Source of the DNA: Escherichia coli
Lineage (GTDB): Bacteria > Pseudomonadota > Gammaproteobacteria > Enterobacterales > Enterobacteriaceae
NCBI RefSeq assembly: GCF_048403405.1
Contig: NZ_CP183129.1
Direction: 5' to 3' (one strand)
DNA: 64,000 nt
The position numbers and the translations under genes were made by a program. Positions within the stretch are counted from its first letter, which is position 1, and each line of letters starts with the position of its first letter. Of the stretch, positions 1,072 to 52,385 are shown one piece after another. Below the pieces are notes generated by a model. It had not been told where the DNA came from. It ran no database searches and worked only from the letters and a program-made list of their open reading frames with translations.

Positions 1072-1087
1072 CTGTATACAAACACAG
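1072..1087 (+). promoter_or_regulatory. LexA (SOS) box 2, CTGT-N8-ACAG
   Basis: ctgtatacaaacacag, 16 bp upstream of the dinI-like start codon. Confidence 0.6.
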
Positions 1088-1351: not shown

Positions 1352-1420
1352 TTAACACGTAAAATCGGTAACGGCTGGAAATCATTCAATACTCGCACTA
1401 TCGGAAGTTCACCAGCCAAC

Positions 1421-1458
1421 CGCAGCACGTTCTTGCATACGACGTGTCTGCGGTTTTT
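1421..1458 (+). terminator. putative intrinsic terminator after dinI-like gene
   Basis: Imperfect hairpin cgcagcacg...cgtgtctgcg followed by a T-run. Confidence 0.4.
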
Positions 1459-1777
1459 CAACCATTCAGATACAGCACTCTCATCACATTCATTCTTCCG
1501 CATTAAAGTATATATGACCATATCACCTTAATATTTTTCTTCTTCAGATAAAAATTGTTATCTATGTATACTTTTAAACCGAATCCGTGTAGAGTCTCTA
1601 CCTAAGTTAGTTCACAGCTACCCCTTCAGTTTGCGCCATTAACTTCCTGACTTTTGCCGCTATCTGTAAGCATTCCTGTATACCTGAAACTACAGGGTTC
1701 ATCTACGAACTTTAAGAACACCCAGGATAAAAATTGTCAACTATATTATATATAACACCATACTAATTCGAGGCTAT

Positions 1778-1891
1778 ATGGACAGCATACTGATAATCAC
1801 TTCACTACTTATCATATTCAGCATTTTTAGTCATGCTCTAATAAAATTAGGGGTTGGCATATCCAATAACCCGGACAAAACCGATGTATAA
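1778..1891 (+). CDS. possible small hydrophobic peptide (37 aa)
   Basis: ATG with weak RBS; translation [37 protein letters not shown] has one predicted TM segment; AT-rich context. Confidence 0.25.
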
Positions 1892-3164: not shown

Positions 3165-3391
3165 AAAATAATCTCGGTGTGAGATGCTTTACGTCTTCCA
3201 AGCCCCCTTCCTTGCCGTAAATGGAAAGATACATCTAATTATAGAATTTATATGTTTTACCCTACGGCAGTGCTGGCCATTCAATATCCTGTGCAGTTGA
3301 CGTATCAACACGGTTCAGCAACACCCGATACTTTTTCCAGGCTTCCAGCAACGGGGTTTCTTCCTCCGTTGCATATACAGCTCACCTTTTT

Positions 3392-3691
3392 TCACCCACG
3401 ATTAACCAACAGCCAGACCAGCAGACACGCCACCACCGGCACAGCAAAATCCATCAGGCTTGCCACATCCCACACGCGCGGATCAAAACCGCCCCACCAC
3501 GGCATGTTAATCCTCTTGCCATGCCCAAACATTTCAATCCAGCGATATTCCGCCTGGGTGTGTTCACGCGCAATGAAGAACGTACAACCGGCTATCGCCC
3601 CGTAAGCCCAGTTCCCGGTAAAAAGACCAACCAGTAGCTGCGCAGCCACAGCACAAAGCGCATGAAGGAAAGGTGTTATATCCATTTTCAT
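3392..3691 (-). CDS. hypothetical small membrane protein
   Basis: About 99 aa with two or three hydrophobic segments, downstream of the tail fiber genes. Confidence 0.45.
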   Translation of the reverse strand: MKMDITPFLHALCAVAAQLLVGLFTGNWAYGAIAGCTFFIAREHTQAEYRWIEMFGHGKRINMPWWGGFDPRVWDVASLMDFAVPVVACLLVWLLVNRG

Positions 3692-3727
3692 CCTACCCAA
3701 TAAAACGGGGCGCTCGGCCCCTTGATA

Positions 3728-4768
3728 TTATTTAGACGCAAGCGCCGCCTCAATTGCAGATAATCTTTGTCTTAATTCTGCGTTTTCTTCTTCCAGTGCT
3801 GTTATTCTGTCGTCTGACTCTCTGGCTACCTGAACAAGCAAGCCAGTAACACCAGAATAATCTACTGTGTAATAACGTTCACCTTCTTCACCTTCCGATC
3901 CGCTTGCGCCGTCCTGATATTTCATTGCGGAACCTACAACTTCTGGGATTGCTTCCAGAGCTTCCTGTGCAATGACACCAGCATAGGGCATACCGTTTTC
4001 TTTAAGCGTGTATGTATAGCCGTTCATTTTACGGATGCGGTCGGTTGCATTATCGATCACCTGAATGTTGTCTTTCAGATCCCGGTCGGAATGCTGGTTA
4101 AATGCGGTGGCATGACATGCACCATTAACGCTTAACATATAGGTGTTATCGGTATTTTTTTGCGCATAGAACATATAAGCGCCACCATCAACACCGACTT
4201 CATAAACAACAGGACGGCTGGAGTTGCCCCACAATTGAGCAGTAACACCAGCATAAGCGGTTCCCTGTGTGTTTAATGTCATGGTTGACCCATGATTGGC
4301 ATATTTGATCTGTAATGTGTCGGTGTAATCAAATTTAATAAGCGCGTTACTTCCACGCTTGCTGTATGACATAAGGCAGTTACCCATTTTGAGGTATCCG
4401 CTGTCACCGGGAAAAATCATCGTACCGCCATAAAGGTTGGTAAAGTCCCAGCAAATGTTTGTCCCGTTATCGTTCAGGTTAAGGCGCGCCATTGCGTTAC
4501 CTGGACTGTCTATCCATTTTTTGAGGTATAGTTCGCAATACGCATCCTCAACACCTGCCGTCCTGTGAGTTGAGCGGAGTTTTCTCCCAAATATAGCTCC
4601 GCTAGTTGGCAATACCTGCTGATACCATGAAGCAGACCAGTCACCAACGATTTCATCTTTGCTGTCTACATATAATTTTGTTGCGTAGCTTCCTTGATCG
4701 TTTTTTAATTTGCTAACGTCGGATTTTAGCGTTTTGATGTCATCAGGAATTACTGTCGATGTAGCCAT
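3728..4768 (-). CDS. tail fiber/receptor-binding protein with C-terminal intramolecular chaperone (peptidase S74-like) domain
   Basis: 346 aa; C-terminal SDRDLKDNI...GYTYTLKENG...ALEAIPEVV followed by a coiled-coil tail, typical of auto-processing chaperone domains. Confidence 0.7.
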   Translation of the reverse strand: MATSTVIPDDIKTLKSDVSKLKNDQGSYATKLYVDSKDEIVGDWSASWYQQVLPTSGAIFGRKLRSTHRTAGVEDAYCELYLKKWIDSPGNAMARLNLNDNGTNICWDFTNLYGGTMIFPGDSGYLKMGNCLMSYSKRGSNALIKFDYTDTLQIKYANHGSTMTLNTQGTAYAGVTAQLWGNSSRPVVYEVGVDGGAYMFYAQKNTDNTYMLSVNGACHATAFNQHSDRDLKDNIQVIDNATDRIRKMNGYTYTLKENGMPYAGVIAQEALEAIPEVVGSAMKYQDGASGSEGEEGERYYTVDYSGVTGLLVQVARESDDRITALEEENAELRQRLSAIEAALASK

Positions 4769-4777
4769 TTTTCTTCC

Positions 4778-5059
4778 TCACATCCAGCCACGAAGTTGAT
4801 GCTCAACAGCAACCACGTATTCATCGAATAATGACGATATTTGCGAATCATTAATGATGCGCACGTTTACAAAATATCCGTCTTCCTTAACACATACCGG
4901 TTCGCCATCTTCAGTCAGTTCTCCGGTTTCTTTGTACACGTTACCTATCACGTCAATAAGAATATCATCCTGCATCAACTCGTCATCATAATAGCCAATG
5001 CTCTCCATAAAGGCCGAAAAGTCGGCCCTGTCGGGAAATTTGAGTGTTAAATCTTTCAT
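4778..5059 (-). CDS. hypothetical acidic protein (93 aa) between the fiber genes
   Basis: ORF overlaps the stf stop by 1 nt, suggesting translational coupling. Confidence 0.5.
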   Translation of the reverse strand: MKDLTLKFPDRADFSAFMESIGYYDDELMQDDILIDVIGNVYKETGELTEDGEPVCVKEDGYFVNVRIINDSQISSLFDEYVVAVEHQLRGWM

Positions 5060-7440
5060 TAGATTGACTCCCCCACCTGAGCATCAGTCAATGCCTTGTG
5101 CCATATTCTGAAATTCCTTACATGACCAAATAAATGACGTAACCCGGCTGTAGTCTGGCCTCCAATACGGATAATTGCGGTGTTCTGAATACAGGACCAT
5201 GTGGTTTTTGTTTCGCTGGATATACGCCCGTTACTTACTGCGCATGTAGACTGATCAGACTTTACACGCATCCCCATAACCATTTTTTCAAGTGATGCAT
5301 TTTCGTTTATCCGTCTGTTAGACCCACCAATATCGCAATAAGGAAATCCGTCGTAATCTGCTGAAGAACCGAAGCCAAGAATAATAGCCGCTCCGGTTTG
5401 ATGACCGCCGGTATCAAAAACACGCGGTGCTGCATTTGGCGTTTTATACCAGTTCTTATGTACCTCACAAAGAACCGTAAAAGGAAGATTATAAAGATTA
5501 TTCTTAATGGGAACTGTGACTATATCGCTTGCGCGGGTCGCCGCCGTCGTTCCTGATATAATAAAAGATGATACACAAGGCCCATTTTCTACTTGTGGGG
5601 TGGCCAGATAAATATAGTCACCAGATACGGTTGCCCCGCCCTGCTTAGGAGAATACTGTATCTGAGAACCTATTTTTAACTCCCCATCAATTGCCTGAAT
5701 TGTTGCCTCTGCAAAAATCCATCCGATAACTTCGTCCTTTCTGACTCTCGCTGTAATCCTTGAGGCAGCGCCGCCTGTCATATTAATTTCAAGCGTTTGT
5801 GTATCAATATACACATCACCAAGAAAAGTTGTTGCGCTACCGTCATATTTATCAAATCGGATACGCAACCTTACCTGCAGTTCTGTTTTAAAACGACATG
5901 AGGTTGTCACGTATTTATTATCGCCTGAGACATCAACTGACTTTGTTGCAGCAATTGATGCCATATTAATGGCTGAGGTTTGCCCAATCAGAGAATCGTT
6001 ACAGACAAACTTTCCATAGGTAAAACCAAAACTATCCGTCCCGGTTTCGGGAACATCCATATTTGACGATCGCCCCCAACTGGCAGGGCTTTCCGAATTG
6101 AGCATGTAGTTCGTTCTTTGCCCCTCAATAAGCAGGCCATCACGTTCAAACCGTGGCTCGTCAATGGCAGCCTCTGTCAGCACACCAGATTTATTAATAT
6201 AGGTTGCTTTCGATGCGCGTTTAAACTTAACAACCTTGTCGCCAGGCATCGTTATTTCATCATCACCAATAACAATCTTTTTATATGACGGCGAAAAGCC
6301 CGTAATCATATCCAGCGAATCGTTAAATGGTATCCACACATCAGGCAGCGGCTGTAAGACATATTTATACGGCTCCGCAGCCTGGCTTGCGTACTCTCTG
6401 GCTGCATCTTCGCTTGCTTTAGCTGCCGTCTGGCTTGCTGCCGATGCTTTCGCTGAGTTCGCAGCCGCTGTTTCGCTCACCTTTGCGTTGGTTTCACTGG
6501 TTTTTGCTGCTTTTTGACTGTTAGCTGATGCAGTGGCAGAAGCAGCAGCCGCGCTTGCAGAACCAGCTGCAGCACTCTCGCTTTCGGCTGCTGCATCCTG
6601 ACTGCTTTTCGCCGCAGTTTCGCTGGCTTTGGCATTCGTTTCGCTGGTCTTCGCTGCCGTCTGGCTGGACTTTGCGTTAGTTTCACTCGTCTTCGCTGCT
6701 TTCTGACTGTTAGCCGCAGCAGTTGCTGATCCAGCAGCTGAAGTCGCAGAACCGGCTGCCGCGCTCTCGCTTTCGGCTGCTGCATCCTGACTGCTTTTCG
6801 CCGCAGTTTCACTGGCTTTGGCATTCGTTTCGCTGGTTTTCGCTGCCGTCTGGCTGGACTTTGCGTTGGTTTCGCTCGTCTTTGCGGCTGTCTCGCTATT
6901 TTTCGCGTTGGTTTCTGATTTTTTGGCTGCTGTCGCGGAGTTTTCTGATGCAGTCTGTGAGGTCGCTGCCGCCTGTGCACTATTAGCTGCATTCGTTTCT
7001 GAGGTTTTCGCCGCGTTCTTCGATGATGCCGCTGCAGTTTCGGATTTCTTTGCCGCCGCTGCGCTCTGAGAGGCGGCTTCGGCGTTGCGTGCCGCTTCTT
7101 CCACCATTTCCTCAAAACGACGCAATGCCTCCGGCATGACATCATCTTCCGTCATGGCACCGAGAAAATCATTCAGCGTACCTGGTCTGGAACCTTCATA
7201 GACGGTAATGGTTCCGGCATGTGAAGGCGGAAAACCTTCAACAAGCAGGATAACGCTGTACTGGCCATACTCAACATCCATGCTGTAACGCCCGGCTTCA
7301 TCCGGATTTTCAGAGGCCACCGTGTTCACCAGTACCGTGGTGCTGTTACGCTTTGCCTTCAGTTGAATAGTGCAGTTCTGTATTGGTTTTCCCGCACCAT
7401 CTTTCAGCACACCTGAGATTTTTACTGCTGCCATATCCAC
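5059..7440 (-). CDS. stf: side tail fiber protein (lambda Stf-like N-terminus, Ala/Ser/Thr-rich repeats, distinct C-terminal domains)
   Basis: N-terminus MAAVKISGVLKDGAGKP..NCTIQLKA matches lambda Stf; C-terminus ends GHVRNFRIWHKALTDAQV (lectin/LamG-like motif). Confidence 0.85.
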   Translation of the reverse strand: MDMAAVKISGVLKDGAGKPIQNCTIQLKAKRNSTTVLVNTVASENPDEAGRYSMDVEYGQYSVILLVEGFPPSHAGTITVYEGSRPGTLNDFLGAMTEDDVMPEALRRFEEMVEEAARNAEAASQSAAAAKKSETAAASSKNAAKTSETNAANSAQAAATSQTASENSATAAKKSETNAKNSETAAKTSETNAKSSQTAAKTSETNAKASETAAKSSQDAAAESESAAAGSATSAAGSATAAANSQKAAKTSETNAKSSQTAAKTSETNAKASETAAKSSQDAAAESESAAAGSASAAAASATASANSQKAAKTSETNAKVSETAAANSAKASAASQTAAKASEDAAREYASQAAEPYKYVLQPLPDVWIPFNDSLDMITGFSPSYKKIVIGDDEITMPGDKVVKFKRASKATYINKSGVLTEAAIDEPRFERDGLLIEGQRTNYMLNSESPASWGRSSNMDVPETGTDSFGFTYGKFVCNDSLIGQTSAINMASIAATKSVDVSGDNKYVTTSCRFKTELQVRLRIRFDKYDGSATTFLGDVYIDTQTLEINMTGGAASRITARVRKDEVIGWIFAEATIQAIDGELKIGSQIQYSPKQGGATVSGDYIYLATPQVENGPCVSSFIISGTTAATRASDIVTVPIKNNLYNLPFTVLCEVHKNWYKTPNAAPRVFDTGGHQTGAAIILGFGSSADYDGFPYCDIGGSNRRINENASLEKMVMGMRVKSDQSTCAVSNGRISSETKTTWSCIQNTAIIRIGGQTTAGLRHLFGHVRNFRIWHKALTDAQVGESI
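6511..6888. repeat. tandem direct repeat, 189-bp period (about two copies), inside stf
   Basis: ctcgctttcggctgctgcatcctgactgcttttcgccgcagtttc occurs at about 6577 and 6766; protein repeat AAKTSETNAKSSQTAAKTSETNAKASETAAKSSQDAAAESESAAAGSA. Confidence 0.8.
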
Positions 7441-29660: not shown

Positions 29661-29931
29661 AATGTTACCGTAATATGTGAGTATCCATCGACTAGACACT
29701 AAGCAAAAAAGCTCCCGAAGGAGCCTTCATTTTCACTTTCTTAAATCTAACGACAGACGGCTAACATTTAAGTATTGTGAAATATTATCAAATGTAATCA
29801 TCATTGATTTACAAAAGATACATTTTGCCCCGAAAGGATTCCTGTCAGAAACATCAAAAGATGATGTTCTATACTGAGAACCATGGCAACACGGGCATCT
29901 AAAGTGAATATGGTTTGTAATATTTTCTACC

Positions 29932-30144
29932 TCAAAGTGCCACTACATGAACAGCCGCGGGGCCTTTAGGTCCGTTCTCAATACCAAATTCGACTTCCTG
30001 ATTCTCAGTTAACGTTTTGAAATCGTTGCTCTGAATAGCTGAGAAATGGACAAACACATCTTTGCTACCATCTTTCGGCGTGATGAAACCAAAACCTTTT
30101 TCAGGGTTAAACCATTTCACTAAACCAGTCATTTTGTTAGACAT
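29932..30144 (-). CDS. cold-shock protein (CspA family, CspI-like)
   Basis: [23 protein letters not shown]...; RNP motifs. Confidence 0.9.
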
Positions 30145-30508
30145 CATTATTACCTTTTGAAGAAGTTAGCCCTTGGGCAGAATGGTCCGAAAAAAAAATA
30201 TCAGAGAGAAAAACCAACAAGGAAATCTCAAGAGGTACAAATAATAAATTTATAACAATGACTGCTTCAGATAATTTTGTAACAAACCAGAACACCATTA
30301 ACGCATGATTAACCAACCATAGCAAGGATTACTTTTGTAAAGAAAAACACACGAATGAAACAATAGCTTTATTTATTAATAAAACGTGTCATTCTGTCTA
30401 ATGACCTTTTATCTTACCCTTAAGATTTCAAGGATTTTGACTCATGGAAGAGTCCTTTTTATTTAAATTTCACATTCAGCGCTAAAAATAATCCGATTTA
30501 ATATTAAT

Positions 30509-33097: not shown

Positions 33098-33381
33098 TTT
33101 AATATTGTGGTACTTTTTGTGGGAGTCATCCACTTACGCACTTTGTTTTGCTATGCCAGCAGTTAGCTTCTGCTGTAAAACTATTCATGCAGCAAACCTG
33201 CACTTCACCACAATGGTTAGCATACTTTTCCTGATTAAGTTATTGCCAAATATGCTGGCCATTGTTTCATGTATTGGACCTCCTTACTATTTATTAAAGA
33301 GATCCAATATTCACCACTCTGTCTGTATCTCCACTCAGGCATCAGCCTTCTTCGTTATCGTATACAGACAAACTATGAATT

Positions 33382-33597
33382 TTAATCAGTAATTATGACA
33401 TTTGCTGCTGCAGGACCTTTAGCACCACTCTCTACAGAGAAGGTAACCTTTTGACCTTCAAATAAGGTTCGATAATTATCATTCTGAATCGCAGAAAAAT
33501 GCACAAACACATCTTTACTACCATCAACAGGAGAAATAAAGCCAAAACCTTTATCAGCGTTAAACCATTTTACTAAACCAGTCATTTTATTTGACAT
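33382..33597 (-). CDS. cold-shock protein (CspB/CspI-like)
   Basis: 71 aa [23 protein letters not shown]... Confidence 0.9.
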
Positions 33598-33896
33598 TCT
33601 ACATTCCTTAACTTGAGCCTTTCGGCATAAATGGCTTGTATAACAGAAACGACTTCGTACTTAATTGGAGAGACTCAAAGAAGGAATAAGTGAATAACAC
33701 CTGAAATGAGAACTGCTTTAGTAAACTACTTCGTATATCGTCTGTTCTTCAAACCGACGCAATCATTAACGCATAGTTGAACATATGAAGCAATGTTTAT
33801 TTTAGACATCCAGCCATCTTCAACCCCATCAAAAAACTATAGCTTTCTTCAGGAACGTGTGTATAGTGCGCCAAGTTATCAGTATTAAGGAATTTT

Positions 33897-40183: not shown

Positions 40184-41012
40184 GACGATGCCCTCCGCTG
40201 ATATTCAGGAGACGGTGAATATGAAAATTAGCCTTATCCGCCAGACGAATACGTTCAGCCTGCAAGTTAAGAAGGGTTTCTACCAAAACCTGATGCGCCT
40301 GCGGATCCGAAAGAGTTACCTTGCGCAGAGCACGTAGTGCAGTTGTTACATAACTGAGTTTATGTAAGTCTTCATCATTCAGACGAGTGAGGGCTGGGAC
40401 AGTAGCCATGATGGCAGCCTCCGATAACAGTGAATTACCTTCACCACCGGAAACGCCAATTTCGCTGGTGGTGAACTGAACGGGGTTGGCGTAACCGGCG
40501 TTATCGGAAACCGGCGCACCTTTCGGTGCCCCCGTCCAGCCCACCATAATTTGGGTGTGCACAGACGCAGACGATAAAAAAGACGCTGGCGCGTCATATA
40601 TCGCCGATAACATTTCCAGGACGCCAATCCCGTCACCCGCTTTATAAGGTGCCTGAACAGTGTAACGTCCCGGAATGGCAGAATCAATGTGCTGGTGGTC
40701 CTTCACACTCAACAAAATCACGCCTGAATTTCCACAAAGGACTAAAGCACTCATGCGGGTAGTCTTTGCGAAGATAGATAACGCGCTGTGTTTCTGGTTC
40801 CCAACGAATAACATGGACATAAAGCCCTCTTCCGTCACGAAACCAGCGGTTAAGTTCCCGCACAACTCGCCCCCCACAGTCAGGTAAAGTTCTCTGTGGT
40901 TACTTACAGCCAGGTAATTTGGTAATCTGCATTCATGCCGTAACAACAGGTGTTCAGCGACACTGACCACCAGCTGTTGCGACAAACGGTTATTTGCCGT
41001 TAAACTGTTCAT
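40176..41012 (-). CDS. hypothetical protein (278 aa), translationally coupled between the CII-like and O-like genes
   Basis: ATGA overlap with the upstream gene; no recognisable motif. Confidence 0.5.
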   Translation of the reverse strand: MNSLTANNRLSQQLVVSVAEHLLLRHECRLPNYLAVSNHRELYLTVGGELCGNLTAGFVTEEGFMSMLFVGNQKHSALSIFAKTTRMSALVLCGNSGVILLSVKDHQHIDSAIPGRYTVQAPYKAGDGIGVLEMLSAIYDAPASFLSSASVHTQIMVGWTGAPKGAPVSDNAGYANPVQFTTSEIGVSGGEGNSLLSEAAIMATVPALTRLNDEDLHKLSYVTTALRALRKVTLSDPQAHQVLVETLLNLQAERIRLADKANFHIHRLLNISGGHRHA

Positions 41013-41894: not shown

Positions 41895-42569
41895 ATGAAA
41901 ACAATCCATGACATCCGGCGGTCTAACGCCAGAAAACTGAGAGATGGTGTTGGCGGAAATTCATCCTTTGCCACCATGATTGATCGCGAGCCAACCCAAA
42001 CCAGCAGGTTTATGGGGGATGGCGCTACTAAAAATATCGGTGACAGCATGGCACGGCACATCGAAAAATGTTTCGACCTGCCTGTCGGATGGCTTGATCA
42101 AGAACACCAGACAACGAACATCACAAAAAAACCTGATGTTTCAATCACTAACAAACAAATAACGTTAGTCCCTGTCATATCATGGGTACAGGCCGGAGCA
42201 TGGAAAGAAGTTGGCTATTCTGAGGTTGATTTGAGCACAGCAGAAACGTATCCCTGCCCTGTACCCTGTGGCGAAATGACTTATATCTTGCGGGTGATTG
42301 GTGATTCAATGATTGATGAGTACCGCCCTGGAGACATGATTTTTGTTGATCCCGAAGTCCCTGCCTGCCACGGTGACGACGTTATTGCATTGATGCACGA
42401 TACAGGCGAAACCACCTTCAAGCGATTGATAGAAGATGGAACACAGCGTTATCTCAAAGCATTAAACCCAAACTGGCCTGAGCCTTACATTAAGATTAAC
42501 GGTAATTGCTCTATAATTGGTACAGTGATTTTCTCGGGAAAACCAAGAAGATACACAATAAAGGCCTAA
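41895..42569 (+). CDS. cI: CI-like repressor (HTH plus S24 LexA-like peptidase domain)
   Basis: 224 aa; Ala-Gly site in VQAGAW, Ser in GDSM, Lys in TFKRL. Confidence 0.9.
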   Translation: MKTIHDIRRSNARKLRDGVGGNSSFATMIDREPTQTSRFMGDGATKNIGDSMARHIEKCFDLPVGWLDQEHQTTNITKKPDVSITNKQITLVPVISWVQAGAWKEVGYSEVDLSTAETYPCPVPCGEMTYILRVIGDSMIDEYRPGDMIFVDPEVPACHGDDVIALMHDTGETTFKRLIEDGTQRYLKALNPNWPEPYIKINGNCSIIGTVIFSGKPRRYTIKA

Positions 42570-42582
42570 TCAATATTTATGA

Positions 42583-42604
42583 ACCTGCTTCGGCAGGTTT
42601 TTTT
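42583..42604 (+). terminator. intrinsic terminator after cI
   Basis: acctgcttcggcaggt followed by ttttttt. Confidence 0.6.
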
Positions 42605-42608
42605 ATAC

Positions 42609-42636
42609 TTGACAATGTACCCATGAGATACATAAT
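42609..42636 (+). promoter_or_regulatory. PL-like promoter (-35 TTGACA, 16-nt spacer, -10 CATAAT)
   Basis: Directly after the cI terminator, directed toward the early-left genes. Confidence 0.5.
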
Positions 42637-43039
42637 GTATCCAAAAGAAACATGAGGCAGGCAAGATTCAAACAAAATTTGGTTGTAACACGGCGTATGG
42701 CACATGCGTCGTTAGCGGTCTGGGGACGTTAAAGGGGACAATCCACTTCTTGCTCGGGCAAACAAACCAGGTAGTCGGAATGTGCAAGTCAATGATGATG
42801 CTGATAAGACGCCTAACCAGCGTGGCGATCCGGTTTGACGCCTGGGAAGAGACCAGGGTGCAACGATGAGGGCATTTATGGAGCCGCGACAAAGTGTGGT
42901 GCCGTAACTGGCTAAGTGCTCTCAGCGTTGTGGTAATCCGCGAAATGGCGCGGCGGTAAGTATGGCGGGGTTACTCTTTCCCCGTTGAGGACACCGGATT
43001 GTCAGGTTGACCATACGCCTGAGTGACAACCCCACCACA

Positions 43040-43100
43040 ACAGCCACTGCTTTGGCGGTACCAGTTTGTACACTTGCTTCCGGCTGGTACCGCTCTTTTT
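43040..43100 (+). ncRNA. DicF-like sRNA candidate ending in an intrinsic terminator
   Basis: tttggcggtaccagttt resembles the DicF core as I recall it; perfect 10-bp stem gcggtaccag/ctggtaccgc (43055..43093) followed by tcttttt. Confidence 0.4.
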
Positions 43101-43237
43101 ACAAAACAGAGAAGAGCATCACCGGACGACAGGCTCATAACCCAATCCATCCGGGCGGCTGCCACCGCAGGTGTTCTTCTCTGTTTTGTGGAGAAACCAA
43201 CCGACCTTGCAGGGTCGATATGATGAGGAGCAGCAAA

Positions 43238-43600
43238 ATGGCTAGCGAACGCAGTACTGATGTGCAGGCATTTATCGGGGAGCTGGACGGCGGCGTATTT
43301 GAAACCAAAATCGGCGCAGTTCTCAGTGAAGTCGCTTCCGGTGTGATGAACACGAAAACCAAAGGTAAGGTCTCACTCAACCTGGAAATCGAACCATTTG
43401 ATGAGAACCGTGTGAAAATCAAACACAAACTCTCATATGTTCGCCCGACTAACCGCGGGAAAATTTCCGAAGAAGACACCACCGAAACGCCGATGTATGT
43501 CAATCGCGGTGGTCGCCTGACTATTCTGCAGGAAGACCAGGGACAATTACTGACTCTTGCCGGTGAACCTGACGGAAAACTACGCGCAGCAGGTCATTAA
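43238..43600 (+). CDS. hypothetical protein (120 aa), first gene of the early-left operon
   Basis: RBS aggag 8 nt upstream of ATG GCT AGC (MASERSTDV...). Confidence 0.5.
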   Translation: MASERSTDVQAFIGELDGGVFETKIGAVLSEVASGVMNTKTKGKVSLNLEIEPFDENRVKIKHKLSYVRPTNRGKISEEDTTETPMYVNRGGRLTILQEDQGQLLTLAGEPDGKLRAAGH

Positions 43601-43665
43601 TATCGTTCTTAATTAACTGATTATTTATCTCATCACTGAATATCTTTATATAGTGAGGACTTATT

Positions 43666-44490
43666 ATGTCTCAGAACTTAGACGCAACCGCAATTAATCA
43701 AATCCATGCCCTTATTTCTGCTCAGGGTGTTAATGAAATTATCAGTAATATTGGTGCCGATGCTGTGGCATTGCCTGAGAATTTCCGCATTCATGATCTG
43801 GAAAAATTTAATTTAAATCGCTTCCGTTTCCGTGGTGCGCTTTCCACTGCCAGCATCGATGACTTTACCCGTTATTCTAAAGATCTTGCAGATGAAGGCA
43901 CCCGCTGCTTTATCGATGCTGATAATATGCGTGCCGTCAGTGTACTTAACCTGGGTACTATTGATGAACCAGGTCACGCAGATAACACCGCCACTCTCAA
44001 ACTGAAAAAGACAGCACCGTTCTCTGCCCTGTTGTCTGTTAACGGCGAGCGTAACTCCCAGAAGTCACTGGCAGAATGGATTGAAGACTGGGCCGACTAC
44101 CTTGTGGGCTTTGATGCTAATGGTGACACCATTCAGGCAACAAAAGCGGCTGCGGCAGTCCGTAAAATCACGATTGAAGCAAACCAGACCGCTGATTTTG
44201 AAGATAATGACTTCAGCGGCAAACGCTCCCTGATGGAATCTGTCGAAGCGAAGACCAAAGACATTATGCCAGTGGCATTTGAATTTAAATGCGTTCCGTT
44301 TGAAGGTCTGAAAGAACGTCCGTTTAAATTACGCCTCAGCATTATCACTGGCGATCGTCCTGTACTGGTTCTGCGCATTATTCAGCTGGAAGCGGTGCAG
44401 GAAGATATGGCTAACGAATTTCGTGATCTGCTTGTTGAGAAATTCAAAGACAGCAAAGTAGAAACCTTTATTGGTACTTTCACCGCCTGA
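43666..44490 (+). CDS. YfdQ-like protein
   Basis: 274 aa; same length and position as CPS-53 yfdQ, upstream of an HD-domain gene. Confidence 0.5.
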
Positions 44491-44617
44491 TTTCATTACT
44501 GCAAATGCCCCTGCGGGGGCATTTATGGAAACGTAATTAACTCAATAATCACCGGATGGTGAGGGCTTCCTTTTACCCAAACTCAGCGCGGTGCAGCGCA
44601 TATACGTGGAGAACAAA

Positions 44618-45154
44618 ATGTCATTTATTAAAACTTTTTCCGGGAAGCATTTTTATTATGACAAGATAAATAAAGACGACATCGTGATTAACGATATCGC
44701 GGTTTCCCTTTCAAATATCTGCCGCTTTGCCGGTCATCTTTCTCACTTCTACAGTGTCGCCCAACATGCGGTGCTTTGCAGCCAGCTGGTGCCGCAGGAA
44801 TTTGCTTTTGAAGCGTTAATGCATGATGCAACAGAAGCGTATTGCCAGGATATTCCCGCTCCACTGAAACGCCTTCTTCCTGACTATAAACGGATGGAAG
44901 AAAAAATTGACGCCGTAATCCGTGAGAAATACGGGTTACCCCCAGTTATGAGTACGCCCGTGAAATATGCCGATCTTATCATGCTGGCAACCGAACGCCG
45001 CGATCTCGGGCTTGATGATGGCTCTTTCTGGCCTGTACTGGAAGGCATCCCGGCAACAGAGATGTTCAACGTGATTCCACTGGCACCTAGCCATGCCTAC
45101 GGGATGTTTATGGAACGTTTTAACGAGTTATCGGAGTTACGCAAATGCGCATGA
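44618..45154 (+). CDS. HD-domain phosphohydrolase (YfdR-like 5'-deoxynucleotidase)
   Basis: H...HD motifs (SVAQHAVL, MHDATE); start at MSFIKTF. Confidence 0.7.
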   Translation: MSFIKTFSGKHFYYDKINKDDIVINDIAVSLSNICRFAGHLSHFYSVAQHAVLCSQLVPQEFAFEALMHDATEAYCQDIPAPLKRLLPDYKRMEEKIDAVIREKYGLPPVMSTPVKYADLIMLATERRDLGLDDGSFWPVLEGIPATEMFNVIPLAPSHAYGMFMERFNELSELRKCA

Positions 45155-45507
45155 ATGTTTTCGAAATGGAAGGGTTTCTTCGCGGGAAATGTGTACCGCG
45201 AGATCTGAAAGTGAACGAAACAAATGCTGAGTACCTGGTACGTAAATTCGACGCGCTTGAAGCTAAATGTGCGGCACTGGAAAACAAAATAATACCAGTG
45301 TCAGCTGAACTGCCACCAGCAAATGAAAGTGTTCTGTTATTTGATGCTAACGGAGAAGGCTGGCTGATTGGCTGGCGTTCTCTCTGGTACACCTGGGGAC
45401 AAAAAGAAACCGGAGAATGGCAGTGGACATTTCAGGTCGGGGACCTTGAAAACTTCAATATCACTCACTGGGCAGTAATGCCAAAAGCGCCGGAGGCTGG
45501 AGCATAA
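45145..45507 (+). CDS. YfdS-like hypothetical protein (120 aa)
   Basis: ORF overlaps the yfdR-like stop. Confidence 0.45.
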   Translation: MRMNVFEMEGFLRGKCVPRDLKVNETNAEYLVRKFDALEAKCAALENKIIPVSAELPPANESVLLFDANGEGWLIGWRSLWYTWGQKETGEWQWTFQVGDLENFNITHWAVMPKAPEAGA

Positions 45508-46127
45508 TGACCACATTTACCAATAAAGAACTGATTAAAGAAATCAAAGAACGAATCAGCAGCCTAGAGGTTCGAGACGATATTGAGCGCCGTGCTTATG
45601 AAATTGCTCTGGCATCGCTAGAAGAGGAGCCGGTGGCATGGCTGCATTCAGAAAATGGCTTAGGTATTCCGGCAATAACGAGGAGTAAAAACATTGCTGA
45701 CAGTTGGTTATCAAAGGGCTGGTATGTTCAGCCGCTATATATAGCCAAGCCAGTGCCGATGGTGCCAGATGCTCGTCCGTCTTTAAATAATGGCATAGTC
45801 GGCTTTGATGAAGGCTGGAACGCCTGCCGCGCCTCCATGCTTAATGGTGCCGAACCTGTAAGCCAGACTTATAAGTTGAACGAGCTGTCGGGCAACTCTC
45901 CGGTAACTCCGGATGGTTGGATAAGCTGTAGTGAGCGAATGCCGAACGATAAACAGTATGTTTGGTGTTGGGGTAAGTCTTACGGCTGGACTGAGTGCGA
46001 TACCTTCGAAGGGTATTACGATTGTTCGAGAAACAAATGGTGGGCAGTTACTGACAATGGGGAAGAACCGGCATCGAAAGTAACCCACTGGATGCCGCTA
46101 CCGGAGCCGCCGCAGGAGGTGAAGTAA
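45507..46127 (+). CDS. DUF551-domain protein (YfdT-like)
   Basis: C-terminal WISCSERMPNDKQYVWCW...THWMPLPEPP. Confidence 0.55.
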   Translation: MTTFTNKELIKEIKERISSLEVRDDIERRAYEIALASLEEEPVAWLHSENGLGIPAITRSKNIADSWLSKGWYVQPLYIAKPVPMVPDARPSLNNGIVGFDEGWNACRASMLNGAEPVSQTYKLNELSGNSPVTPDGWISCSERMPNDKQYVWCWGKSYGWTECDTFEGYYDCSRNKWWAVTDNGEEPASKVTHWMPLPEPPQEVK

Positions 46128-46321
46128 TGAACAACTTAATGACAACTAAACAAGTCGCCGATTTCTGTGGTGTTTCAGTATCGACAGTTCTTCGCTGGAA
46201 CAGCGTAAACAGGAGAACTGGCCAGAAATACAGGCCTGACTTTCCAGATCCTGATATTAAATCCTGCCCAAATAAATGGGCATCACACAAGATTTACAGA
46301 TTTGCGGGAGTGATTGATTAA
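46127..46321 (+). CDS. xis: AlpA/excisionase-like HTH protein
   Basis: 64 aa; MTTKQVADFCGVSVSTVLRW HTH; adjacent to the integrase module. Confidence 0.6.
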   Translation: MNNLMTTKQVADFCGVSVSTVLRWNSVNRRTGQKYRPDFPDPDIKSCPNKWASHKIYRFAGVID

Positions 46322-46597
46322 TATGTATTAGCTTAGATGTGAGCTGACACATCTATGATTAGATGCCAAACCTAATCTGAGCGTCCACTCTTTACCAAGA
46401 GCGGACGTTACCAATGACCATATGACATGAATCGATAAGATCAAAACATTATCGCCAAGAAATGTATTGATACAAATAAAATTGATTACCCCCTTACTCT
46501 TGTTGAAAAGTTAGTCGTAGAGTACCTATCGCAATGTAATCAGCTTTAATCATCTGAAAATTACTCCTTAAAAATTAGCTTTTATATACTGAACAAA

Positions 46598-52064: not shown

Positions 52065-52150
52065 GCGAAGGTGGCGGAATTGGTAGACGCGCTAGCTTCA
52101 GGTGTTAGTGTCCTTACGGACGTGGGGGTTCAAGTCCCCCCCTCGCACCA
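52065..52150 (+). tRNA. leuV: tRNA-Leu (anticodon CAG)
   Basis: gcgaaggtggcggaattggtagacgcg...ttcaagtcc...cgcacca; long variable arm; CUUCAGG anticodon loop. Confidence 0.9.
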
Positions 52151-52178
52151 AAAACCACGTTGATATTGCTCGCACTGG

Positions 52179-52264
52179 GCGAAGGTGGCGGAATTGGTAG
52201 ACGCGCTAGCTTCAGGTGTTAGTGTTCTTACGGACGTGGGGGTTCAAGTCCCCCCCTCGCACCA
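52179..52264 (+). tRNA. leuP: tRNA-Leu (anticodon CAG)
   Basis: Near-identical tandem copy. Confidence 0.9.
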
Positions 52265-52298
52265 AACGAGGCGATATCAAAAAAAGTAAGATGACTGT

Positions 52299-52385
52299 GC
52301 GAAGGTGGCGGAATTGGTAGACGCGCTAGCTTCAGGTGTTAGTGTCCTTACGGACGTGGGGGTTCAAGTCCCCCCCCTCGCACCA
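52299..52385 (+). tRNA. leuQ: tRNA-Leu (anticodon CAG)
   Basis: Near-identical tandem copy. Confidence 0.9.

Follow-up and report, generated by a model that had tools for sequence, protein, structure and literature searches.

A prophage gene of the YnaM/YnfT family encoding a small, predicted single-helix membrane peptide upstream of ydfK in Escherichia coli

The 37-codon open reading frame (ORF) at positions 1778-1891 (+) of the Escherichia coli DNA analysed here (64,000 nucleotides of contig NZ_CP183129.1, hereafter the window) is a real gene. It is an allele of the gene for the prophage small membrane protein YnaM/YnfT, which has already been named and curated. The favoured reading, held at a probability of roughly 85%, is that the ORF specifies a translated single-pass membrane peptide, comes first in an accessory module of the prophage and is probably co-expressed with a cold-shock gene. 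A gene that is named, curated as a family, annotated in RefSeq and confirmed by immunoblot for its K-12 paralogues was thus rediscovered from raw sequence.

The assignment is based on RefSeq annotation, family models, identity to the K-12 proteins and the ratio of non-synonymous to synonymous substitution (dN/dS). A 619-nt stretch surrounding the ORF matches E. coli strain YDC107 with 100% identity. In that strain RefSeq lists the ORF as 'YnaM/YnfT family protein' (WP_123863255.1), and the genes that come next are annotated as 'cold shock protein YdfK' and a recombinase. The peptide matches Pfam family PF23676 'YnaM' with 92.5 bits (cutoff 27) across residues 1-37 of 37, and NCBIfam model NF041477 with 60 bits (cutoff 35). 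Its PHROG match, 35882, is in the category unknown function, and PADLOC returned no match for it. In K-12, YnaM (b4744) is encoded in the Rac prophage upstream of ynaE, and YnfT (b4748) in the Qin prophage upstream of ydfK; the latter ORF was named YnfQ in VanOrsdel 2018. The two K-12 proteins share one sequence, and 35 of its 37 residues match the window peptide, the differences being confined to residues 2 and 26 (D2 and V26 in the window; N2 and I26 in K-12). All 10 invariant positions used to define membership of the family are present in the window peptide.

Both K-12 proteins have been observed experimentally. In LB cultures, chromosomal SPA tagging and immunoblotting revealed YnaM as well as YnfQ, whose K-12 coordinates are those of the present ynfT (VanOrsdel 2018, PMC6001520), and both were positive in tetracycline ribosome profiling (PMC6001520). 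Made from their native loci, the proteins reach levels that are easily detected in growing cells (PMC6001520; bioRxiv 10.1101/511675). No start-codon peak was seen for YnaM with retapamulin/Onc112 (Weaver 2019, bioRxiv 10.1101/511675); the suspected cause is the mapping of reads to both near-identical K-12 copies. For the window allele, synthesis is predicted indirectly, from the conserved Shine-Dalgarno sequence and a dN/dS of about 0.1. A search of the literature on YnaM function found two detection papers and incidental mentions in gene lists, and the available part of the text of the Adams 2021 supplements makes no mention of ynaM, ynfT, ynaE or ydfK.

The ORF begins with ATG, ends with TAA and occupies exactly 1778-1891 (+), both in the sequence and in the list of ORFs, as reported in the earlier note that had drawn attention to it as a possible hydrophobic peptide. 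The helix and polar tail described there correspond to one strongly hydrophobic segment followed by SNNPDKTDV, and the surrounding spacer is AT-rich as claimed, with a G+C content of 36.5% across 1352-1959. The length of 575 bp given for the gap applies if ydfK begins at an in-frame ATG at 1927; with the annotated start at 1960, the gap measures 608 nt. The claim that the gap holds no other ORF is not literally correct: each strand has mechanical ORFs of 20-33 aa, and the left edge of the gap is overlapped by one of 57 aa on the minus strand (1348-1521). RefSeq annotates none of these. Translation signals and conservation in related prophages had been proposed as checks on the ORF, and both are found. 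A GAGG Shine-Dalgarno sequence at 1770-1773 (+), read from the sequence, precedes the ATG by 4 nt and falls in invariant columns of the E. coli/Salmonella alignment, and the ORF is kept in related prophages and in inducible phages.

To assess chance expectation, the 608-nt gap was shuffled 2000 times with dinucleotides preserved. Of these shuffles, 91% contained an ORF of 37 aa or more, and the length of the ORF is therefore uninformative by itself. An ORF that also contained a 19-residue window with a mean hydropathy of at least 2.5 was found in 0.55% of the shuffles, or in 0.25% when only ATG starts were allowed. The hydrophobic segment of the ORF exceeds chance expectation.

The ORF is under purifying selection at the level of the protein. 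A total of 28 copies was collected, with K-12, Salmonella phage 118970_sal3, two E. coli genome contigs and IMG/VR viral contigs reached through the neighbouring YdfK as sources. The search of genome contigs with YdfK returned the two E. coli loci and one irrelevant match in Rhodobacteraceae. Wherever a ydfK homologue was preceded by sufficient upstream sequence, as was the case at 28 loci, the 37-codon ORF is intact; 11 distinct alleles are represented. Values of dN/dS (Nei-Gojobori) in the frame of the ORF lie between 0.06 and 0.18 in eight pairwise comparisons, as against about 0.8-2 when these sequences are read in either of the other frames. Between the window allele and that of the Salmonella phage there are 14 synonymous and eight non-synonymous changes, at 24.8 and 86.2 sites, respectively (binomial p = 3.8e-5). 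Variable columns are distributed as 9/6/18 over codon positions 1/2/3. Selection of this kind is seen in the ORF frame only. Since the family is very narrow and confined to prophages of Enterobacteriaceae, these statistics rest on few independent lineages.

Within E. coli the gene is common. Of 5426 complete genomes, 2786 carry the ORF, at up to three copies per genome, and all 25 rows sampled over the ranking of E. coli genome matches carry an annotated, intact YnaM/YnfT. The window allele is uncommon, with eight records at an identity of at least 99% across the ORF. Sequenced temperate phages, including mEp460, 2H10 and Tritos, also contain the ORF. A YnaM-family ORF without an annotated feature was noticed in the phage records 2H10, Tritos, mEp460_ev081, PhiR63_1 and PhiR68_2. 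The gene appears to be under-annotated in phage records, since several deposited genomes carry the ORF unannotated and RefSeq calls it in bacterial genomes. In comparisons of E. coli-type with Salmonella-type DNA, upstream similarity is limited to about 50 nt before the ATG, including the invariant GAGG, and similarity continues across the ORF, parts of the spacer and ydfK.

A profile search of 1.84 billion cluster representatives returned this family alone, in three real clusters at 50% identity, leaving aside fragments and chimeras formed at IS junctions. The distant members P0020 and P0023 are about 45% identical to the window peptide, both reach PF23676, and both keep the C-terminal motif; the native N-terminus of P0020 appears to have been lost at an insertion junction. 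Their genes are located at prophage ends with baseplate genes of the Mu gp48 type, beside genes for tail fibres and tail-fibre assembly, and a ydfK homologue is absent from both loci. One distant homologue belongs to a genome of Enterobacteriaceae, and the aspS of this genome shares 87.5% identity with E. coli aspS. As the distant homologues occur in loci without ydfK, the peptide is likely to have a role that is independent of ydfK, and not to be a mere leader. Distant YnaM-like genes are adjoined by an acyltransferase-3 gene, a family that includes the O-antigen acetylases of lysogenic conversion.

In the window, the gene belongs to a lambdoid prophage of about 47 kb, inserted between yjjG and prfC, with the integrase at the far end. 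At the prfC-proximal end, beyond the tail-fibre genes, the order is a dinI-like gene, ynaM, ydfK and pin. From ynaM to pin, this equals the gene order of K-12 Qin and Rac. The order of the ORF and ydfK is also retained in Salmonella phage 118970_sal3. The ynaM-ydfK pair is convergent with the phage late operon. The region past the tail-fibre genes is the usual site of accessory 'moron' genes, and ynaM is proposed to be the first cistron of a two-gene, moron-like accessory module, ynaM-ydfK.

The DinI-like gene (1103-1351) is followed by an intrinsic terminator at 1418-1458 (+), a hairpin with a U-tract (UUUUU) of -20 kcal/mol (z = -3.9 against shuffles), which is conserved in the Qin and Rac copies of K-12. 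Because the dinI-like gene is terminated at this site, ynaM would need a promoter of its own, with transcription starting past it. A candidate distal promoter, TTCAGA-18 nt-TATACT at 1543-1572 (+), came from a consensus scan. Neither of its hexamers varies among 11 distinct E. coli copies, and both belong to the best-conserved block of an otherwise divergent leader; this block is missing from the Salmonella-type module. A candidate start site near 1580 would leave a leader of about 200 nt ahead of the ORF. Nearer to the gene, alignment of E. coli and Salmonella copies revealed a conserved block, GGATAAAAATTGTCAAC, at 1725-1741 (+), which contains TTGTCA at 1734-1739 and is the only upstream sequence common to E. 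coli-type and Salmonella-type modules. This block may be a proximal promoter or operator element. A sigma-70 promoter at the TTGTCA was considered and set aside as a candidate only, as no -10 hexamer is found at acceptable spacing. Overall, five promoter-like sites were found in the region, with 4.8 expected from shuffles.

Some further features of this upstream region were recorded. A 12-nt direct repeat, GATAAAAATTGT, occurs in the leader at 1547-1558 and 1726-1737 (+); its first copy overlaps the conserved promoter-like site and its second copy lies inside the upstream block conserved with Salmonella. The repeat may be a promoter or operator element that is present twice. Two tandem LexA-box-like sites (CTGT-N8-ACAG), CTGTTTATTCATACAG at 1044-1059 and CTGTATACAAACACAG at 1072-1087 (+), precede the DinI-like gene, and their position just ahead of the gene suggests that it is under SOS control. 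The Rfam family CssrB gave a hit at 1421-1558 (-) with 24 bits against a gathering threshold of 76, which was rejected as a shared terminator-like hairpin and not a member of the family. The terminator hairpin has a distinctive loop region, GTTCTTGCATAC, and it is the CssrB 3' hairpin that it matches on the opposite strand, with the same 24 bits. Similar hairpins flank the distant ynaM-like genes, downstream in locus L035 (about 190-228) and upstream in locus L036 (about 2868-2905), and the terminator hairpin looks like a recurring boundary element of the accessory module.

Downstream of the ORF, a 68-nt intercistronic spacer (1892-1959, +) contains the ydfK ribosome-binding site AAGGA at 1947-1951. 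The spacer is 97% identical to the K-12 copies, has a minimum free energy of -0.9 kcal/mol (z = +1.66), and held no terminator-like site in the scan. Transcription of ynaM probably continues into ydfK, a co-transcription that is likely because the spacer is unstructured and free of terminators and ydfK has a ribosome-binding site of its own. On this basis ynaM is also expected to respond to cold. The ydfK gene (1960-2193, +; RefSeq) encodes a 77-aa cold-shock protein that is 96-97% identical to K-12 YdfK and YnaE. YdfK and YnaE had been recognized as cold-shock proteins at the transcript level, and the proteins themselves were seen by top-down mass spectrometry following refrigeration (PMC5594050). 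YdfK has no Pfam family. It matches the NCBIfam YcgZ model with E = 0.0098 and 16 bits against a cutoff of 80 bits, and in pairwise BLASTP 54 aa align with K-12 YcgZ at 26% identity (E = 7e-5 for a single comparison). YcgZ is a small connector protein induced by cold and blue light and encoded beside bluF/bluR, which are regulated by blue light and temperature. YdfK and YcgZ may thus be remote homologues, as two small regulators linked to cold.

The same stretch of DNA has been described from the perspective of RNA. The leader of ydfK/ynaE was reported to act as an RNA thermosensor whose transcripts end prematurely (Raghavan 2011, cited in PMC4444293 and PMC5089854), and the leader RNAs of ydfK and ynaE co-immunoprecipitate with Hfq (PMC4152368). 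The YnaM ORF falls within this 5' leader, which is treated as non-coding in the RNA literature. A structured-RNA reading of the ORF and spacer was tried and rejected, as the fold of 1725-1990 is no more stable than that of shuffles (z = +0.79) and one of 39 alifold pairs covaries.

The peptide itself is predicted to be simple in structure. The best 19-residue Kyte-Doolittle mean is 2.52, at residues 4-22, and AlphaFold2, run with the family alignment of 11 sequences, gives a single helix at residues 2-30 (mean pLDDT 87) with an unstructured tail. Residues 4-25, approximately, would thus form a hydrophobic membrane helix, followed by a strictly conserved juxtamembrane tail. The sequence of the helix varies across the family and stays hydrophobic, and the motif A20-x-x-K23-x-G25-x-G27-x-S29-N30-N31-P32-D33-x-x-D36 is invariant, including in the homologues of about 45% identity. 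The variable helix, the invariant polar tail and stable accumulation in growing cells suggest a specific, membrane-anchored binding interface. In the most likely mode of action, the conserved tail would bind a larger partner, and the peptide would be a membrane-anchored modulator. A cytoplasmic C-terminus is weakly favoured, since K23 is the sole charge beside the helix. Roles as a pore-forming toxin or as a mere leader peptide are thought unlikely.

Three other explanations of the ORF have been weighed against a translated peptide with a function of its own. Translation of the ORF, as distinct from the peptide produced, could tune ydfK by protection from Rho or by remodelling of the thermosensor. 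The ORF does lie inside the thermosensor leader described for ydfK/ynaE (as cited in PMC4444293 and PMC5089854), the ORF-ydfK order is kept in E. coli and Salmonella, and the conserved spacer sequence CCTGAAT can pair with ATTCAG inside the ORF. Against this, the amino-acid sequence is under strong purifying selection (dN/dS of about 0.1), the K-12 protein is stable enough to be detected, and the homologues of about 45% identity still have the tail motif although ydfK is missing from their loci. The stop codon is, in addition, 68-74 nt away from the start of ydfK, which has its own Shine-Dalgarno sequence, and neither a terminator/antiterminator arrangement nor support from folding (z = +0.79) or covariation (1/39 alifold pairs) was found. 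This explanation is consequently very improbable, although a secondary cis effect on ydfK, besides the function of the peptide, is possible. The view that the ORF arose by chance in a purely non-coding leader RNA draws on the 91% of gap shuffles that contain an ORF of such length and on the first description of the region as a non-coding leader. It is effectively refuted and retains hardly any probability, given the frame-specific pattern of substitution, the intact ORF in every copy examined, a hydrophobic segment matched in 0.55% of shuffles only, membership of curated protein families and the published detection by immunoblot (PMC6001520).

The third explanation follows the earlier note, in which the peptide was compared to small membrane toxins and a search for an antisense RNA was advised. 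The product would then damage or depolarize the inner membrane, and a small RNA, antisense or overlapping, would normally keep it silent. The peptide is indeed small and prophage-encoded and has a single hydrophobic helix; a promoter-like sequence on the minus strand (TTGATT-16-TAAAAT, from 1969 to 1942) could direct antisense transcription through the ORF; and the association of the ydfK/ynaE leader RNAs with Hfq (PMC4152368) would be compatible with such regulation. However, Pfam and NCBIfam match the peptide to the YnaM family only, and no toxin family was matched in Pfam, NCBIfam, PHROG or PADLOC. Rfam searches of either strand, with E up to 1, gave no antitoxin RNA family. The lone antisense promoter-like site is at chance level, as promoter-like sites in the region are as frequent as in shuffles (5 versus 4.8), its -10 element is altered in all three Salmonella-type sequences (CAAAAT or TAAAAC), and a scan for minus-strand terminators found none. 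Unlike type I toxins, the K-12 proteins accumulate from their own loci in LB cultures that grow normally, which makes strong toxicity at native levels unlikely. Further, the strictly conserved part is the polar tail and not the helix, which indicates a specific interaction. A toxin of this type is therefore very improbable, and of the earlier interpretation the genuine gene for a small, hydrophobic, single-helix peptide stands, whereas the comparison with toxins is not supported.

Taking the ORF as a translated membrane peptide that is probably co-expressed with ydfK, a broader proposal can be framed, which is speculative and rather unlikely as a whole. The 'thermosensor leader' would be, at least partly, the mRNA of YnaM, and the tail of the peptide, together with YdfK, would modulate a host protein of membrane signalling or transport, or exclude superinfecting phage in the cold. 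If this were true, ynaM-ydfK would be a cold-responsive prophage module in which the invariant tail KxGxGxSNNPD acts with YdfK. The proposal raises the question of whether peptide, leader RNA and YdfK form one temperature-responsive prophage module.

Several other features were recorded in the prophage and its surroundings. The prophage is unusually rich in cold-shock genes; it contains a Qin-like set of cspF, cspB, cspI, ymcF, ynfN and gns, and two thermoregulator leaders of the cspA type (29886-30292 and 33319-33758, -). A C4 antisense RNA (40464-40551) is located beside an isrK-like RNA (40576-40652, -), and three tRNA genes are present outside the prophage at 52065-52382 (+). The side tail-fibre region at about 3200-6000 (-) (42368-46540 in locus record L037) is fragmented. 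RefSeq annotates in it a tail-fibre assembly gene that is truncated and two pseudogene pieces of 'prophage tail fiber N-terminal domain', and because of this fragmentation the side tail fibres of the prophage may be defective. Rfam IS009 gave a partial match at 3296-3400 (-), with 66 bits against a gathering threshold of 117, which reached the edge of the searched region. It is positioned between the pin invertase and the remnants of tail-fibre assembly genes, and it was below the gathering threshold in the scan of the whole window.

The closest known relatives of the window gene are the K-12 copies, ynaM and ynfT. They have in common with it a length of 37 aa, the GAGG ribosome-binding site and a place upstream of ydfK/ynaE and the pin invertase, at the tail-fibre end of a lambdoid prophage, and the flanking leader and spacer DNA is 85-97% identical. 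Unlike the K-12 copies, the window gene is carried by a prophage integrated elsewhere, between yjjG and prfC, and a DinI-like gene is found immediately upstream.

A second comparison concerns YnfR, or 'cold shock small protein YmcF', which is likewise encoded by a small ORF beside a cold-shock gene in Qin-like prophages. The YmcF gene adjoins cspI in the window prophage, and the level of YnfR-SPA rises strongly upon cold shock (PMC6001520). YnaM/YnfT is unrelated to YnfR/YmcF in sequence and is detectable at 37 °C. The location of ynaM also resembles that of lom and bor of lambda, cor of phi80 and N15, and gp15 of HK97, which share an accessory place at the end of the late region, apparently as a terminator-bounded unit of their own, and a membrane-associated product. 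No homology relates lom, bor, cor or HK97 gp15 to ynaM.

The type I toxins Hok, Ldr, TisB, IbsC, ShoB, DinQ and ZorO are similar to YnaM in being short, hydrophobic, one-helix peptides, often encoded in prophages or intergenic regions. They differ from YnaM, which is without a toxin-family match or a detected antisense RNA and is detectable in unstressed, growing cells. The characterized small membrane-protein modulators MgrB, AcrZ, MgtS, SafA, PmrR and CydX have no sequence relationship to YnaM, and they are encoded in the core genome whereas YnaM is prophage-borne. They resemble it in size (fewer than 50 aa), in having one transmembrane helix and in a short soluble segment that is conserved and could make a specific contact. 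Most characterized E. coli small membrane proteins bind a larger partner, and it is to these modulators that the YnaM/YnfT peptide may, by analogy, best be likened.
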